Shown here: one piece after another, positions 4,739-58,255 of the stretch
Layout of the letters: each line of letters starts with the position of its first letter
Numbering within the stretch: position 1 is the stretch's first letter
Virus record (IMG/VR): IMGVR_UViG_3300021256_000060
Strand: one strand, 5' to 3'
DNA: 64,000 bases
From: an uncultured virus (IMG/VR IMGVR_UViG_3300021256_000060)
Lineage: Duplodnaviria > Heunggongvirae > Uroviricota > Caudoviricetes
Program-made: the position numbers and the translations under genes
Notes under the pieces: model-generated
What the model was told of the DNA's origin: nothing
The model's input: the letters and a program-made list of their open reading frames with translations, nothing else
Databases searched by the model: none

Positions 4739-5044
4739 TCATTTCTTAATTAAAGAACCAGTAGTATTCGTAGGACTATTCGGGATTTGTCTTTTTATAA
4801 GAGAAGTCTGCATTTGTTTCTGACCAGCACTAGAAGGATTACCAGCAAACCCTTTAGCTCCTACAGCCTTAGCAAAGTTGTTAACTTTGGTCTGTGCCCT
4901 ATTAGCTGCATTGGTTACTGATCTACCAGCATCTCGTACTCTGTTAACGATTCCGCTTACAGCACTAGATGCATTTCCTAGATTAGTCTGAACACGATTC
5001 TTCACATCATCAAGAAATCCCTCTTGAAAGGTAACGTATCTCAT
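4739..5044 (-). CDS. small basic putative head protein with short propeptide
   Basis: Start moved to MRYVTFQE-GFLD (GAGGG SD); remainder basic. Confidence 0.55.
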   Translation of the reverse strand: MRYVTFQEGFLDDVKNRVQTNLGNASSAVSGIVNRVRDAGRSVTNAANRAQTKVNNFAKAVGAKGFAGNPSSAGQKQMQTSLIKRQIPNSPTNTTGSLIKK

Positions 5045-5057
5045 GATGGTACCCTCA

Positions 5058-5905: not shown

Positions 5906-6817
5906 TTACCCCTCCTTAGAGAATTTGCTCTTGATTTTGTCAATACCACTAGTAATACCATTCTTCACTTTGGAAGCCTGGTTACTAACAGCATCTGCAG
6001 CTTTGCCACCCATCTCCTTAGCACTCTTAGCAGCACCAGAGATCTTCTTACTAGCACTATCCTTCAAATCGAATAGTTTGGATTTAAGTGATTTAGCCAT
6101 AGCTTTCAGCTTATCCATTTGACGAACAATCAGAGCTTTTGCACTAGCCGGAGCTTTCTTGGCTTCAGCCGCCTTAGCAGCAAGTGCCTTACGAACACTA
6201 GCCAGTTTCTTTGATACTACAGATACAGCTCCTGACACTTTGTTTTTGGCTACACCATATGCACCAGATACTTTATCCTTAGCATAGTCATAACCAGAGG
6301 ATACCTTTCCTTTAGCGGCATTAAATCCACTAGAGAGCTTATCCTTAGCATCAGTGATGATGGACTCGTTCAAATAGTTCAAGCAATTTACACTCTCATC
6401 AAGAGTAGCATATTCCTGATCCATTTCAAGAGCTTCCATCAAAGAGCTGTAATACAAGCTATCACTAGAAATACGAGCAACGTGACAGGGAAATCCAGCT
6501 TCGGCTAATTGAGTAAATGTATCAGCCAATTCATCATCAGCAATGATATTTTCTTCATTAGCTACAAAGCCCAAGTTATCCCGAGGAACACTATTAGCTT
6601 CACATACTCTATGGATAGCAAGTCCAGCATCTTCGATGCCATAACACTGAGCAAAACCTAAGAATGATTCCAGCTGAATGAGATCTTGACCAAGACGAGA
6701 ATTATGGCGTACATTTACCATACTCGGGTCAAAAGCACTCTCACTCAGACTAAGATGGTCTATGCTGTCGAGGAGAGCAGTTGCTTCTCCCAACAGCTGA
6801 TTCTGCTTAATCAGCAT
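5906..6817 (-). CDS. putative internal head protein paralog with 11-aa amphipathic repeats
   Basis: MLIKQNQL start, site LNE-S, AKDKLSSGFNA/AKGKVSSGYDY/AKDKVSGAYGV repeats. Confidence 0.6.
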   Translation of the reverse strand: MLIKQNQLLGEATALLDSIDHLSLSESAFDPSMVNVRHNSRLGQDLIQLESFLGFAQCYGIEDAGLAIHRVCEANSVPRDNLGFVANEENIIADDELADTFTQLAEAGFPCHVARISSDSLYYSSLMEALEMDQEYATLDESVNCLNYLNESIITDAKDKLSSGFNAAKGKVSSGYDYAKDKVSGAYGVAKNKVSGAVSVVSKKLASVRKALAAKAAEAKKAPASAKALIVRQMDKLKAMAKSLKSKLFDLKDSASKKISGAAKSAKEMGGKAADAVSNQASKVKNGITSGIDKIKSKFSKEG

Positions 6818-23750: not shown

Positions 23751-24125
23751 TTATTCGTCCCAAGTTACGGTGAAACCAATTGCAGTATTGTCTTCCATAA
23801 CTTCTCTTACTACATATCCCAAAACAAATAAGTTGTTAATAACTGCTCCTCTTAGTTTAGGTTTGAAATCCATGGAAGCAGATGCGTATAATACACTCAG
23901 TGAGTATTTACCCTTAATGGCTTGGGCTTTGATTCGATTAAGAACTCTAGCAGTCAATATATTGATATTCTCCTCATCAGTATAAGTGTCTGCCTTTGCC
24001 GATAGTTCTTTCATCTTAGTAGCAGTGAAGTCATCAAAATCAACTACTACCTCTTCTTTAGTATCTTCATTTTCCGCTCCAGTTCCCTCTTTGGGAACAT
24101 TGTTTAATTGTTCTTCATCAGCCAT
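23751..24125 (-). CDS. hypothetical protein
   Basis: ORF with SD; C-terminus similar to 47890..48195 (GY...I/VxW). Confidence 0.6.
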   Translation of the reverse strand: MADEEQLNNVPKEGTGAENEDTKEEVVVDFDDFTATKMKELSAKADTYTDEENINILTARVLNRIKAQAIKGKYSLSVLYASASMDFKPKLRGAVINNLFVLGYVVREVMEDNTAIGFTVTWDE

Positions 24126-24210
24126 AGTATAACTCCTTTCTATATCAATTTACACTGTTGTCTAAGAAAAATAAAACACGAGGAGCATTACGCCCCTCGT
24201 GCCTATATTA

Positions 24211-24854: not shown

Positions 24855-25325
24855 TTATTTCTTTTCGGATTTCTTTTGCTCAATCAGGATATCTCTAACC
24901 TTCATAAGAGCTTTGCCAAGAGCGTTGTACCCCTTACCAGTATCTTGACGTACTCCAATCCAGTCATCCATATGAGTAACCACATGTATCAGATTCTTAG
25001 GATAAGTAGCAATCAACCAGTTTGCCAAAACATGATTCTTGAACTTCAGTAATAATACCTTTTCTAAGTAGAACTCTTTGTTCTCCTCATAATCCTCATT
25101 ATAAGGAAGATTTGCTACTTTCTGTCTAGCTTTATTAGGACTAAGTCTAGCAATCTTTCTCATTATCTTGGGATTAGTACTCTTGAGAGCATAGAATAGA
25201 GTAGCAGCGCATGGGTACGTTTCTCCTTCATACTCAATAGCACTTGGGAACTCCAAGGTCAAATACTTATAACCCGTTTTTACGAAGTCGCGAATCTCTC
25301 CATTAGTTCTGCTTACCGTTGACAT
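24855..25325 (-). CDS. NADAR (YbiA-like) domain protein with degenerate active-site motifs
   Basis: IEYEGETYP...YALK, LKF...LIAT, DDWIG...GKGYNALGKALMKVR. Confidence 0.8.
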   Translation of the reverse strand: MSTVSRTNGEIRDFVKTGYKYLTLEFPSAIEYEGETYPCAATLFYALKSTNPKIMRKIARLSPNKARQKVANLPYNEDYEENKEFYLEKVLLLKFKNHVLANWLIATYPKNLIHVVTHMDDWIGVRQDTGKGYNALGKALMKVRDILIEQKKSEKK

Positions 25326-51621: not shown

Positions 51622-53046
51622 TTAAAGATTAGGTAGCTTGGTCCCTAAATCAATATCTGGCCCTAGATGGTTATCATTTGGACGGAGCCGAGCATATTTA
51701 AACATCTTGATGTTTCCTAGAGTATTATGCATGTACTCCTTATCAATGTATACCACGAAATGAATTTCTGTAGAGGTTAAAGGTTCAGTAAAGGTTAGCT
51801 TCATATTCTCCCAATCAATAGCTACCTGAATATAATCTACCCAGTTAAATGCCATTATATTAATGAATCTAGATGGAGATATGGCATTGGCTTTAGTGGC
51901 ATCTATAACTTCTCTTAATTCGTTGATGAATATTGGATCTATATCTATAGTTACTGGCTGTTTATTATTGAAGGCCTCCATCTCTTCTTTAGTAGATAAT
52001 TCATATTTAGACCTAAATTCCCAAGGCCATCCATGCTCATCTACTGCAGGAATATTAGCTAGAGTCGTGATACCGAATAAGAATGATTTAGTATCCAATA
52101 CAGTATAGGATTCCAAATGTTCCCTCTGTATTAAAGAGTAGTATGCAAAGAATTTAAGATATGGGAAGAACACCTCACAAGTGAAATTTACTCCAAAATC
52201 ATTGTATATCATATTCCTCTGCTGACCTTGTTGTTTCTGTATTCTAGAGGTTCTGATATGAATTCTGCACCTAGGGATTCTCAAGAAGAATTCCATATTG
52301 CCAGTAGCTTCATTGAACTTATACATCAATGCTAGTTTACTTCTCATATTGAAGTAATGTAGCATATCATTAACCTCATACATACCGTCTTCATTACATA
52401 GACCTGCATCACAAGCTACTTGGCCGATAAGCTCATGAGGTATAGGATAATCTATATCTATATAGTTCTTTTGACTACCTCCTCCTCTAAATGCCATATC
52501 ACATAGAGCAAATACGTCATCTTGAACTGATTTGGTAGATACATGGATATTGAATCCAAACTCCATTCTAACTTCTCCAAAGGCTAGAGATATATAGGTA
52601 TTATGTTCTCGGTCAATAAAAAAAGCATCTCTATAATTACATCTATTATTGTATAAGGTTAGACCCAAATTATATAGGTCTATATTACTACGATTGTATT
52701 CAGTGTCCTCATCTACTGTAATATGAGCAGATGGTTTATTCGTCTTAATCAGTTCTCTCATAGTATATCTCTGAGTCTGATCATGAATGTGAGATAAATC
52801 TAAGTATTTATGCTTAAAGAAATTCTTTGGAAATCTCTTATAAAACCAGTTATTCATATATTGTATAGCTAGGCTGTATGACTGATATAACTGAGCAACT
52901 ATAAGATTAGTTTTGAGTTTATGGTGATTCGTTTTCTTTATATCTATTGGGAGTCCCTTAGTTACTCCAAATCTCTCGAGAACTTCTCGATTAGATAATA
53001 CCTTTACGTATCTTCCTGACTGATGATTTTCCATTTGAATCTTCAC
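51622..53046 (-). CDS. large hypothetical protein, possibly virion structural
   Basis: 474-aa ORF downstream of a late-type promoter (53263-53274). Confidence 0.6.
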   Translation of the reverse strand: MKIQMENHQSGRYVKVLSNREVLERFGVTKGLPIDIKKTNHHKLKTNLIVAQLYQSYSLAIQYMNNWFYKRFPKNFFKHKYLDLSHIHDQTQRYTMRELIKTNKPSAHITVDEDTEYNRSNIDLYNLGLTLYNNRCNYRDAFFIDREHNTYISLAFGEVRMEFGFNIHVSTKSVQDDVFALCDMAFRGGGSQKNYIDIDYPIPHELIGQVACDAGLCNEDGMYEVNDMLHYFNMRSKLALMYKFNEATGNMEFFLRIPRCRIHIRTSRIQKQQGQQRNMIYNDFGVNFTCEVFFPYLKFFAYYSLIQREHLESYTVLDTKSFLFGITTLANIPAVDEHGWPWEFRSKYELSTKEEMEAFNNKQPVTIDIDPIFINELREVIDATKANAISPSRFINIMAFNWVDYIQVAIDWENMKLTFTEPLTSTEIHFVVYIDKEYMHNTLGNIKMFKYARLRPNDNHLGPDIDLGTKLPNL

Positions 53047-55716: not shown

Positions 55717-55884
55717 TTAGTTGATAGACTTTAATGCTCTTCTTGCCGCTACAGCTTTATGCTTTCTAGCAAAATAAGCTTTCTCGGCTTCGTCTGCTTT
55801 TCTCTTCGCATCCTTTTCAATCTTCGTTAAGAAGAAGAACGGAACTCCGAATACTAAAGACAGAATGATAATAGTTGTGAACAT
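55717..55884 (-). CDS. 55-aa membrane protein, paralog of 55341..55661 (cassette 1; absent from ORF track)
   Basis: MFTTIIILSLVFGVPFFFLTKIEKDAKRKA..., AAGGGG SD. Confidence 0.65.
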   Translation of the reverse strand: MFTTIIILSLVFGVPFFFLTKIEKDAKRKADEAEKAYFARKHKAVAARRALKSIN

Positions 55885-56192
55885 GATAAATTACCCCTTT
55901 CTTTTAGGTAACTGATAGAGGATCATAACTATTTTACACATGTATCTATATACATATAACCTCTTATTCACCTCGATAATATACAATTGAAAATATATAC
56001 TTTTACGAAACACAGTCATTTACCATTCAGACAAAAAACGGTTAGAGGGGCATACAAGCCCCTCTTATCAAATATCACCATAATAATATATTAATATTAT
56101 TTTGAAAAATTGCAAAATATTAAGGAGTAGGTCATTATGACCTACTCCCTATGAGTATGATTTTATGGGTAAAACCTTGTGTATATATAAAA

Positions 56193-56736
56193 GAGTTATG
56201 GATTGCGTTAGCTACCTTATACCGGTTATCCTCTGCTTCAAACTAGAATAGCAGTAACCCTCTTCGAGTAGCACGGAATTGTAATAAGGATTTGGTTTAT
56301 CAATTTGGCGGGTTATCAGATTGGGCTCGTTAAAAATACTACCAGGTATAAAAATAGTTTTATCAGGTTATCAGTTTAGGTACGTATATCAATTTAACGA
56401 GTTATCAGTTTAGCCCATTTAAGCATCTTTGTATTTATGTGCTTAATTTGATTGAGGAAATCAATGTGACTCATTGTCCCCATATGTACGCTCAGAGGGA
56501 TTCGAACCCTCGTGATCTTTACGATCGGAAGATTTAAAGTCTTCTGTGTTTAACCACTCCACCACAAGCGTGAACCATTTTGGTTATGTATTAACAGCTT
56601 AGCAAGCTGGTGCAATCCTATTAGTCTTTTCTATTACCAAGAGGTAAGAGCATGTGGCCATAAGACATCTCGATTGCATTAGGAAAAGGCCCTAATTTGA
56701 TTGAGGTTAATTCAGCCTCGTAATCCATAATTACTC
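56193..56736 (-). ncRNA. large structured ncRNA with AAACUGAUAA-type repeats and an embedded tRNA
   Basis: complementary ends (56193-56207 / 56719-56736), many internal helices, six motif copies, terminator-like hairpin at 56125-56149. Confidence 0.6.
56487..56571 (-). tRNA. class II tRNA with UUA anticodon (ochre suppressor-type), no encoded CCA
   Basis: ACGCTTG/TGAGCGT acceptor, GAGTGGTTAAA D-loop, GAAGA-CTTTAAA-TCTTC, long variable arm, GGGTTCGAATCCC, A73. Confidence 0.8.
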
Positions 56737-57014
56737 TAATATATCATTATAGTGTTTCTCAGATACGTATTGGATTTCATCTCTTCGTCTAGTCTCATTC
56801 GCATTGCCTCGATAGCATCATATGCAGTATGTACATTTATCCATGTGTTTAACATACTCTGCAATGACTCTGAGAGAATACGTTCCAATTCACCAGCAAG
56901 TATAGAATCTTTCAGCTTAGGAACGATTTCAACATATAGAGTATGATTTGCTTCATTTATATCTACATAAATATAGTGAAACTCTTCTCTGTATCTGAAT
57001 CTGATGCTATTCAT
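56736..57014 (-). CDS. hypothetical protein
   Basis: ORF between the DIP1984-like gene and the ncRNA. Confidence 0.55.
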   Translation of the reverse strand: MNSIRFRYREEFHYIYVDINEANHTLYVEIVPKLKDSILAGELERILSESLQSMLNTWINVHTAYDAIEAMRMRLDEEMKSNTYLRNTIMIY

Positions 57015-57016
57015 GA

Positions 57017-57748
57017 TTAATAATCAATCTCTACTTTAGTAGAAGCATTGGCCTCACTAATAATAGAGTCGATCCGAACAATGTAATCATTGATTGCATT
57101 GTAGTACTTCTGAATAGCATTGTTGTTGACAAAGTCATGAGGATCGATACGAATGATCTCTACAAGAGCTTCTTCTTTAGCACGTTCCTCATTATATTTA
57201 TCCTGGCTCCAAGACTGTTTGCTGTCAGAGGGGAACTTACGTTCCATCTGATCTGCAACTTCTCTCTTAGCCCGATTCTCGTATTCAGCTCTCTCTTTCA
57301 AATCAGCAGTAAGAGTATTGAGAAGAGCATTAGCGAGACTCTTGAGCGGGTAATCCGTGTTATCGTAGCCAGTTTTGTTGGCGCGACCTTTATAGTTGTT
57401 CTTACGATTAATAGCCTCAGCGATAGTGATTTCTTCTTCTCCTACCTCTTTACCATTAATCAGATCACGGAAGTTAGGTTCACAAGGAACCGTAACCAAT
57501 GTATTGTGATTGGCATGAGTATGTGCCTTCTTGAGAGCGCTCAGTCGAGCCATCAGATCAGTGAATTGCTGGAACTGTTCTTTCTGATGATTGGTCTGTT
57601 CTTCTAGAGAACGAGGACCAACATACTGGCTGTTTTTCAGGCACCAAGTTACAAATCGAAAATCATTTGATTTAATCAGATTAATGATTTGTACCTTTAC
57701 TGATTTTTCCTCTGCCAGAACCTGAGTAAGTGTTAGTTCTTCGTGCAT
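57017..57748 (-). CDS. DIP1984-like helical protein
   Basis: LTxxLAExK start, ANHNTLV, TIAEAI, IDP, IDSIISEANASTKVEI end pattern (family recognised from memory). Confidence 0.55.
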   Translation of the reverse strand: MHEELTLTQVLAEEKSVKVQIINLIKSNDFRFVTWCLKNSQYVGPRSLEEQTNHQKEQFQQFTDLMARLSALKKAHTHANHNTLVTVPCEPNFRDLINGKEVGEEEITIAEAINRKNNYKGRANKTGYDNTDYPLKSLANALLNTLTADLKERAEYENRAKREVADQMERKFPSDSKQSWSQDKYNEERAKEEALVEIIRIDPHDFVNNNAIQKYYNAINDYIVRIDSIISEANASTKVEIDY

Positions 57749-57802
57749 GATTCTACCTCCATTACTTATCAGTTTAGTGTATATTAAAATCTAATTTAGC
57801 CG

Positions 57803-58255
57803 TTAGTTGATAGGCACAATTGATTTCTTAATCAATTCGACTAAACTATCCTTAATATCATCAAATGTACTGTCTTTGTCAGTCAGCTCATAAGTGATAT
57901 TAAACATGTAGTAGGATTTAATCGTACTATCTTGATTTACCTCTACTAAAGGAGTCTTGGTATCATCGTCAACTACCTCAGTGTCATATATAGAGATAAT
58001 TGCTTCAGTGGGATCCTCTTCTTTAACATTGTAGTCACCGACAAATCTAACCTTTTTACCAGTCATCTTTTCTGTAAACTTCTTCCCACTACCGGAAGGA
58101 TTTACATTTCTTTTGCAAACTGTATAGGAATGACCATCTAAGAGAGCCTTGTAGTTAGCGAAAGCTTCAGCATCTTTTAAAGACTCGAAGATAGCGTTAG
58201 GTACAATCTCCCAATAATCTTTATCTCCTACATATACTTCATATATTTCTGTCAT
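57803..58255 (-). CDS. hypothetical protein
   Basis: ORF with SD. Confidence 0.6.
   Translation of the reverse strand: MTEIYEVYVGDKDYWEIVPNAIFESLKDAEAFANYKALLDGHSYTVCKRNVNPSGSGKKFTEKMTGKKVRFVGDYNVKEEDPTEAIISIYDTEVVDDDTKTPLVEVNQDSTIKSYYMFNITYELTDKDSTFDDIKDSLVELIKKSIVPIN

Follow-up and report, generated by a model that had tools for sequence, protein, structure and literature searches.

A previously undescribed class of large folded RNA in animal-gut jumbo phages, with a ROOL/GOLLD-like layout and probably a multivalent binding platform

Results

A conserved non-coding RNA follows the gene for a 243-aa protein

We analysed a stretch of 64,000 nucleotides (nt) from an uncultured virus of the Caudoviricetes (IMG/VR record IMGVR_UViG_3300021256_000060), here called the window, and in it a non-coding RNA of ~540 nt that is encoded on the minus strand downstream of the gene for a 243-amino-acid (aa) protein. 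This RNA belongs to a class of large folded RNAs (about 445-580 nt) that had not been described before and is found in jumbo phages of the animal gut, and it has the layout of the phage RNAs ROOL and GOLLD. Substantial open reading frames (ORFs) in the window all lie on the minus strand, with a coding density of ~89% under the standard code, and they include genes for ribonucleotide reductase and topoisomerase II. The closest relative found, G001 (we denote genomes by G numbers and lineages by L numbers), is a complete viral contig of 266 kilobases (kb) that is 97% identical at the locus, which identifies the window phage as a jumbo phage. A preliminary description of the window, made from the sequence letters, had presented the stretch beside the 243-aa gene as gene-free and as having complementary ends, and both observations hold. 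There is no ORF of at least 60 aa in 56193-56735, and positions 56196-56207 are complementary to 56719-56730 over 12 nt at 92% (repeat I19), which we read as a predicted helix of 11 base pairs (bp) between 56197-56207 and 56719-56729.

Loci were obtained for about a dozen lineages, with 31-100% protein identity to the 243-aa protein, and the RNA follows the homologous gene at every locus with enough flanking sequence, down to 31% protein identity. The order of its parts is shared. On the 5′ side, a strand complementary to the extreme 3′ end is followed by a 3-bp helix, a pseudoknot segment and further hairpins of the 5′ domain; the middle consists of a variable linker and then UAAAC-type repeats arrayed about a central hairpin; and on the 3′ side come a CCAAAUCC box, a hairpin with a GAAGA loop, a second hairpin and the closing 3′ strands. 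Between anchor words the element measures 443-572 nt across lineages, and its structure is better conserved in the flanks than in the linker. RNA sequencing runs that contain the locus are animal-gut metatranscriptomes according to their run records. A scan with 16-mers returned 45 loci, three of which matched model R1, all three in genomes already known. Among annotated phages there was no close DNA match to the locus and protein matches were weak (Brevibacillus phages, 32% over 46% of the query), and the homologue was absent from a scan of one genome per prokaryote species. The coordinates of the features are collected in Table 1.

Table 1. Features of the RNA locus and related sites in the window, with the metatranscriptome contigs that cover the RNA
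Feature	Position	Strand	Remarks
Whole non-coding RNA, ~540 nt	56193..56732	-	5′ end near 56732, 3′ end near 56193; covarying terminal helix
Terminal helix P1, 5′ strand (UAUGGAUUACG)	56719..56729	-	pairs with 56197-56207
Terminal helix P1, 3′ strand (CGCAAUCCAUA)	56197..56207	-	G.U and U.G pairs at two positions
P1b 3-bp helix, 5′ strand GCU	56714..56716	-	pairs with 56211-56213
P1b 3-bp helix, 3′ strand AGC	56211..56213	-	covariation with 56714-56716
Pseudoknot 5′ segment (CAAAUUAG)	56692..56699	-	complementary to hairpin B loop
Class II tRNA in linker	56486..56571	-	anticodon UUA (ochre-suppressor type), loop CUUUAAA, A73; ARAGORN, Rfam
Repeat array, 5-6 sense copies	56297..56413	-	consensus YUAAAYUGAUAA; surrounds internal helix
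Conserved CCAAAUCC box	56288..56295	-	3′ edge of array; aligned block across relatives
Hairpin A, ACUC-GAAGA-GGGU	56257..56269	-	GA(A/U)GA loop; stems vary by lineage
Hairpin B, CUGCU...AGCAG	56233..56254	-	loop is the pseudoknot 3′ partner
Hairpin B loop (CUAGUUUG)	56239-56246	-	pairs with pseudoknot 5′ segment
Terminator-like hairpin 3′ of RNA	56121..56151	-	second one at 56044-56065
92-aa ORF between 243-aa gene and RNA	56736..57014	-	only in window and G001
243-aa protein	57017..57748	-	always upstream of RNA; 30 homologues in one collection, 48 cluster representatives in another
Leader copy of repeat (CUAAACUGAUAA)	57766..57777	-	GGAGG of the 243-aa gene lies 5 nt downstream
Second leader copy (UAAAUUGAUAUA)	24141..24152	-	equals array repeat 2; the 124-aa gene's ribosome-binding site follows after 4 nt
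124-aa gene, no family	23751-24152 (leader copy included)	-	exact 12-nt array repeat 2 in leader
Contig, run X2	56188-56728		541 nt; depth 21.4
Contig, run X5	56181-56726		546 nt; depth 11.9
Contig, run X3	56200-56710		512 nt; depth 57.5
Contig, run X1	inside element		295 nt; depth 193.5

Covariation of the terminal helices, pseudoknot and hairpins

Because noise in this AT-rich sequence defeated an automatic search for the terminal helix, the ends of the element were set with anchor words. The helices P1 and P1b were then compared in 16 distinct full-length sequences, in which 92.4% of cells were paired, against 29-47% when the partner strand was slid by 1-3 columns; eight of the 16 sequences form one near-identical group, so there are fewer independent events than these cell counts suggest. 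Both sides have changed in 5 of the 11 pairs of P1 and in all three pairs of P1b (GCU/AGC, GCA/UGC, UUC/GAA, GUG/CAC), or in 8/14 pairs for the two helices together, and their joint covariation score is 0.446 against 0.162 +/- 0.025, none of 500 shuffles being as high. Two positions of the terminal helix are occupied by G.U or U.G pairs in 11 sequences, and a U.G pair is also present in hairpin A; these would become A.C mismatches on the opposite strand, which assigns the RNA to the gene strand. The 5′ strand of P1 contains an AUG that opens a 35-aa frame in the window. A coding reading of this AUG was rejected because, by eye, the frame stops at codon 3 in L024 and the AUG is missing from the L014 and L016 groups.

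The pseudoknot was assessed by an alignment-free test in nine lineages, two of which (L028 and L030) are close. Cognate duplexes between the 5′ segment and the hairpin B region had a mean energy of -11.6 kcal/mol, against -7.8 kcal/mol for non-cognate duplexes with partners from other lineages, and none of 20000 permutations was as good. Hairpin A is represented by four different stems (ACUC/GGGU, GCUU/AAGC, CCAU/AUGG and CCAC/GUGG), and 4-5 pairs flank the GA(A/U)GA loop in 11/11 lineages (2 of 20000 permutations as good). RNAalifold applied to six 5′ domains recovers a GGYC/GRCC pairing. Five nested helices had been proposed in the preliminary description; the relatives lend support (by eye) to tgcaatc/gattgca and to ctcgttaaa/tttaacgag with tgggct/agccca, and gctac/gtagc and ggtta/taacc were not found in other lineages.

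The RNA is represented by discrete contigs in metatranscriptomes

Of the words sampled from 2.4 kb of sequence surrounding the locus, 13-26% were present in 19 RNA runs (10 studies), and contigs were examined in four of these runs from four studies (Table 1). Single whole contigs from three studies lie on the element at 4-40 times the depth of the neighbouring genes, for which contigs have a depth of 2-5, and the flanks 55900-56142 and 56791-57114 are without contigs. The contig ends fall within about 20 nt of the ends set earlier from covariation, and the contigs read through the linker tRNA, which is still embedded in them. Taken together, these contig data are good, if not final, evidence that the RNA is a discrete and abundant species that contains the tRNA. 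A sigma-70 scan returned 9 promoter-like sites, against 7.4 expected, none of them positioned to drive the RNA, and a TATAAT at 56746-56751 was noted by eye only. Homologous loci, covariation and metatranscriptome contigs together bear out the earlier suggestion of a structured RNA, which is both conserved and expressed.

Embedded transfer RNAs with changing anticodons

The transfer RNA (tRNA) in the linker had been overlooked in the preliminary description. It scores 57 bits against Rfam RF00005 (gathering score 29), has a 7-nt anticodon loop in which ARAGORN reads the anticodon tta, and carries a long variable arm. The same 86-nt tRNA body is present in the window, G001 and L020, with two more changes in G001, one in the variable arm and one at the discriminator, and the anticodon loops are CUUUAAA (UUA) in the window, CCGAAAA (GAA, C33) in G001 and CUUGAAA (UGA) in L020. 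In a comparison of window 56486-56571 with L013:5178-5263 and L020:1506-1591, the anticodon loops differ and the discriminator is either A73 or U73. The more distant L021 has the anticodon UUA again, and both the UUA and the GAA forms were found in RNA contigs. L031 carries a UCA (opal-type) tRNA and an AGA tRNA, and L026 a UUG tRNA and a second tRNA; the L031 tRNA at 1761-1835 is a class I tRNA with the opal-reading type of anticodon UCA, embedded in the same RNA class. Judged by anticodon only, three of the seven lineages that carry a tRNA have a stop-reading type, namely the window and L021 (UUA) and L031 (UCA). In the window, TAA is used as a stop more often than any other codon (53/87 crude calls), and no sign of TAA recoding was found there, in-frame neighbours (11/87) being no more frequent than expected. 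G001 has just two tRNAs genome-wide.

Two further observations concern the linker. A 14-nt exact direct repeat lies on either side of the tRNA (window 56444-56457 and 56693-56706), only in the window and G001; on the RNA strand it copies the pseudoknot 5′ segment to a place just 3′ of the tRNA, and excision of the tRNA could therefore leave a 3′ half able to form the pseudoknot alone. The linker of L025 contains a tRNA-like stretch (4960-5045) with a T-arm-like GTTCGATTC and a 3′ GCCA, which neither ARAGORN nor Rfam called.

That the locus is a plain tRNA transcription unit, with a structured leader and trailer that serve only tRNA processing or stability, would agree with the tRNAs in the elements of the window, G001/L019, L020, L021, L022, L026 and L031, yet it is highly improbable, because L024, L028, L030, L014, L015 and the L016 group keep the whole RNA without a tRNA, and the RNA is thus not just the flanks of one. 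The greater structural conservation of the flanks and the retention of the tRNA within the contigs also argue against it.

The repeat array shares its word with gene leaders

Six copies of a WTATCA motif had been listed at the locus, and their starts at 56297, 56313, 56360, 56368, 56386 and 56402 were confirmed. The window has 151 plus-strand WTATCA sites; when these were placed at random 2000 times, six fell within 112 nt in 3 placements. The exact 12-mer TTATCAGTTTAG occurs in the window only at 56368, 56402 and 57766, as described before, and in the 266-kb G001 exact copies are confined to the same three places, which answers in the negative whether it is frequent genome-wide. When one mismatch was permitted, there were 4 matches in place of the 0.77 expected, and none of 100 shuffles reached 4. 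Arrays are present in all relatives, with 5-6 copies in the window and up to about 12 in L028, and in every lineage the copies are all sense-oriented.

The copy at 57766 stands in the leader of the 243-aa gene, just upstream of its ribosome-binding site, and a repeat in this position recurs, with lineage-specific words, in 8/12 lineages. The leader copy ends 3-6 nt before GGAGG in eight leaders (by eye), a position that suits control of ribosome access. In the distant 342-kb relative G003 a different 12-mer, TAAACTTTTATA, occurs just twice, once in the array and once 40 nt upstream of the homologue's start codon. The correspondence was quantified as the longest exact word common to a leader (-45..-1) and its own element. 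Its mean length was 11.4 nt for cognate pairs, against 8.9 nt with the elements of other phages (3 of 20000 permutations as good); it was at least 11 nt long in 8/12 lineages, and the sense match exceeded the antisense control in 11/12. Other leaders that matched the element equally well numbered 1/82 in the window, 0/10 in L025, 0/4 in L028, 0/6 in L030, 0/8 in L015, 0/1 in L031, 2/8 in L024, 7/8 in L014, 2/3 in L016 and 1/1 in L022. Regions downstream of the homologues show covarying structure and, in 8/12 lineages, repeats that match their own leaders; the same fraction has the combination known from CsrB, a word repeated in the RNA and present again at a ribosome-binding site.

We considered whether the repeat is a general promoter or leader word and rejected this because AAAYTGATA occurs eight times on the gene strand of the window, five of them at the RNA locus. 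In G001, at about 6400-6460 on the minus strand, a tandem mini-array of about four AACUGAU-type words stands directly after a 71-aa ORF and is a predicted further site for whatever recognises the repeat.

The repeats could instead act in DNA, as operators, iterons or a centromere-like array, with the leader copy as an operator and the RNA fold as a separate matter. We judge this very unlikely, given that the copies are all sense in every lineage and lie within an abundant transcribed RNA, that the leader copies keep a fixed 3-6 nt from the ribosome-binding site in eight leaders (by eye) and that the GC skew has no switch at the RNA locus. Direct-repeat arrays are, however, typical of iterons and partition sites, the window leader copy lies immediately after a TAATAT box, with comparable boxes in L020 and L021 (by eye), and could therefore overlap a transcription start, and the G001 mini-array lies upstream of TATAAT-like boxes. 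An operator role of the leader copy had been raised as a caveat in the preliminary description and may still apply.

The 243-aa protein and neighbouring genes

The 243-aa protein belongs to no Pfam or NCBIfam family, no Pfam family is common to 35 homologues, and an NCBIfam search at expectation values (E) up to 0.1 returned just an unrelated GspM model (0.058). The protein had been called DIP1984-like. This name has no sequence support, but the fold matches its one structural relative, PDB 3kdq, a Corynebacterium diphtheriae protein of unknown function that we take to be DIP1984 (VIA Z 11.1 with 151/152 residues aligned, the next match at 7.4; Foldseek E 8.8e-4; 15-17% identity). The phage protein is about 90 residues longer than 3kdq and has no sequence-profile match to it, and the fold match explains nothing, as 3kdq is without known function. 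A protein atlas offers a weak lead from the 243-aa protein to DUF7873.

The 92-aa ORF between this gene and the RNA was not found by tblastn in the loci of 12 relatives. For the 124-aa protein, whose gene has the second leader copy, no similar protein was found, nor a homologue in the distant complete genomes G002-G004. Downstream of the RNA, a 474-aa protein (window 51622-53046, minus strand) is present in six lineages at 40-54% identity and has no family or solved relative. An intergenic element of ~130 bp at about 55880-56010 recurs at four further places in G001 with 73-91% identity. Elsewhere in the window, 24855-25325 (minus strand) encodes a NADAR-domain protein (Pfam E 1.7e-13).

Discussion

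A proposed platform for a binding factor

On balance we lean towards a reading in which a new class of RNA carries its repeats as a platform that titrates a factor, with the 243-aa protein as the candidate factor. The class is ROOL/GOLLD-like and probably forms a multivalent binding platform, and the repeats that it shares with the leader of the adjacent gene point to a common binding partner. Its 5′ and 3′ domains are tied together by the terminal helix, the 3-bp helix and the pseudoknot, with the variable linker, here bearing a tRNA, between them. In the mechanism that we propose, the 5-12 sense UAAAC(U)G(A/U)UAA repeats on either side of the central hairpin would be single-stranded docking sites for a sequence-specific factor, and this factor would repress the messenger RNAs (mRNAs) of the 243-aa gene and, in the window phage, of the 124-aa gene, as suggested by the presence of the same word a few nt upstream of the ribosome-binding sites of these genes. 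The RNA would then act as a multivalent platform or sponge for the factor. The most economical guess at its identity is the 243-aa protein, which would be under autogenous control; its position and the repeat in its own leader make it the obvious, if unproven, candidate for the binder. A role of the repeat at the DNA level, a host factor, or contacts with the ribosome or between RNAs are possible alternatives to this protein. The interpretation put forward in the preliminary description is partly supported by these findings: it had missed the ROOL/GOLLD-type layout along with the tRNA, and for the toxin-antitoxin reading that it also offered no support was found.

Several observations weigh against the titration model. 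The leader-array match is not outstanding in 4/12 lineages (L022, L024, L014 and L016), and L028/L030 and L014/L015 are close pairs, so that the independent lineages are fewer than 12. The adjacency of gene and RNA may be plain synteny, as the downstream 474-aa gene is likewise conserved in six lineages. The 243-aa protein is acidic, with an isoelectric point (pI) of 5.63, and 29/35 homologues are below pI 7; family and profile searches recognised no nucleic-acid-binding domain in it. As to the fold of the RNA, hairpins A and B were just 67% paired in a model-guided alignment, against 26-53% when slid, because subgroups differ by a one-column register; the RNAalifold consensus of the 5′ domain is weak (-4.4 kcal/mol, six sequences); and in single-sequence folding both strands are about equal (z -2.8 and -3.1). 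The metatranscriptome contigs cannot prove the strand, exact ends or true level of the transcript.

The acidity of the 243-aa protein would fit an assembly of RNA only, as shown for ROOL and GOLLD, in which the RNA multimerises into a cage or scaffold without a dedicated protein, the array is a flexible interior linker or a set of docking sites for RNA, the ribosome or S1, and the leader copies serve as translational enhancers or ribosome-binding words and not as repressor sites. Such an assembly would also be in keeping with the two domains, variable linker and linker tRNA that make up the layout shared with ROOL and GOLLD, with the complementarity of the L025 hairpin B loop to the array repeat itself (by eye) and with pull-downs in which GOLLD binds ribosomes, as cited in the accessible part of 10.1101/2024.12.08.627333. 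It leaves unexplained, however, that the word is rare genome-wide and yet recurs in lineage-specific form in the adjacent leader, and the presence of the word in just 2/83 window leaders argues against a general enhancer; we therefore consider RNA-only assembly unlikely.

The titration model can be extended to the embedded tRNA. In a ribonucleoprotein timing device of this kind, a stop-reading tRNA with a fast-changing anticodon would be held in the folded or multimeric RNA while the array titrates a translational repressor of the neighbouring gene, and processing or opening of the structure would release both and alter the reading of stops in the infected cell. We put this forward as a decidedly speculative extension, and one that is quite unlikely.

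Comparison with known RNA classes

Searches of Rfam with the window and 13 relatives, at the gathering thresholds and at E up to 1, returned tRNAs only, beyond chance-level matches to a small nucleolar RNA, a plastid untranslated region and a parechovirus CRE, and the RNA therefore matches no known large RNA family there. For ROOL (RF03087, gathering score 99.1 bits) there were no matches at E up to 10 in G001, and window 55900-57900 and the 13 relatives gave none at E up to 1. For GOLLD (RF02032, 150 bits) there was no match at the locus, and a match of 9.7 bits (E 0.48) lies at G001 139331-139535. In the literature covered by our search, outside of which some journals fall, no description of the present RNA was found.

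To our knowledge, no large ornate phage RNAs other than ROOL and GOLLD have yet been described; the structures of both have been solved and their functions are unknown, and we know of no protein partner of ROOL. In the accessible parts of the published accounts (PMC5737381, 10.1101/2024.12.08.627333), ROOL is an RNA of about 580 nt from phages and prophages, first found in the cow rumen, often located near tRNAs and very abundant where measured, and ROOL and GOLLD are large phage or prophage RNAs with a non-conserved linker, which in GOLLD sometimes holds tRNAs. The present RNA resembles ROOL as a large phage RNA near tRNAs with a variable linker, a likeness of layout only, with no sequence shared. 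ROOL forms an octameric RNA-only nanocage; a repeat array matched to the leader of a neighbouring gene is not mentioned in those parts of the ROOL descriptions. Like the present RNA, GOLLD has separate 5′ and 3′ domains, and phage tRNAs are sometimes found in its variable linker, but it is larger (over 800 nt) and its domains are described, in the same parts of the accounts, as separate and not intertwined.

The bacterial RNA OLE offers a different likeness, that of a large ornate RNA which, in the accessible part of its description, works as a ribonucleoprotein. OLE is not a phage RNA, Rfam finds no OLE match here, and the Oap proteins are unrelated to the 243-aa protein. The gene for the OLE partner adjoins the RNA gene, and we know of no repeat array or embedded tRNA in OLE. 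In the CsrB/RsmZ sponges and the autogenous repressors exemplified by T4 RegA and ribosomal proteins, a short word is repeated in a non-coding RNA and is present at the ribosome-binding sites of the targets. The resemblance to CsrB/RsmZ is one of logic only, as the present word is A/U-rich (UAAACUGAUAA) and not GGA, and a search of the complete G001 for T4 RegA (PF01818) gave nothing at E up to 1.

The RNA would thus be a third class, unrelated to ROOL and GOLLD, in which a word links the RNA to particular mRNA leaders and to one conserved neighbour gene. It would offer a handle on function that is missing for ROOL and GOLLD, namely candidates for the ligand site, the targets and the protein, and its fast-changing anticodons of the stop-reading type tie the question of why such RNAs keep company with tRNAs to the reading of stop codons.

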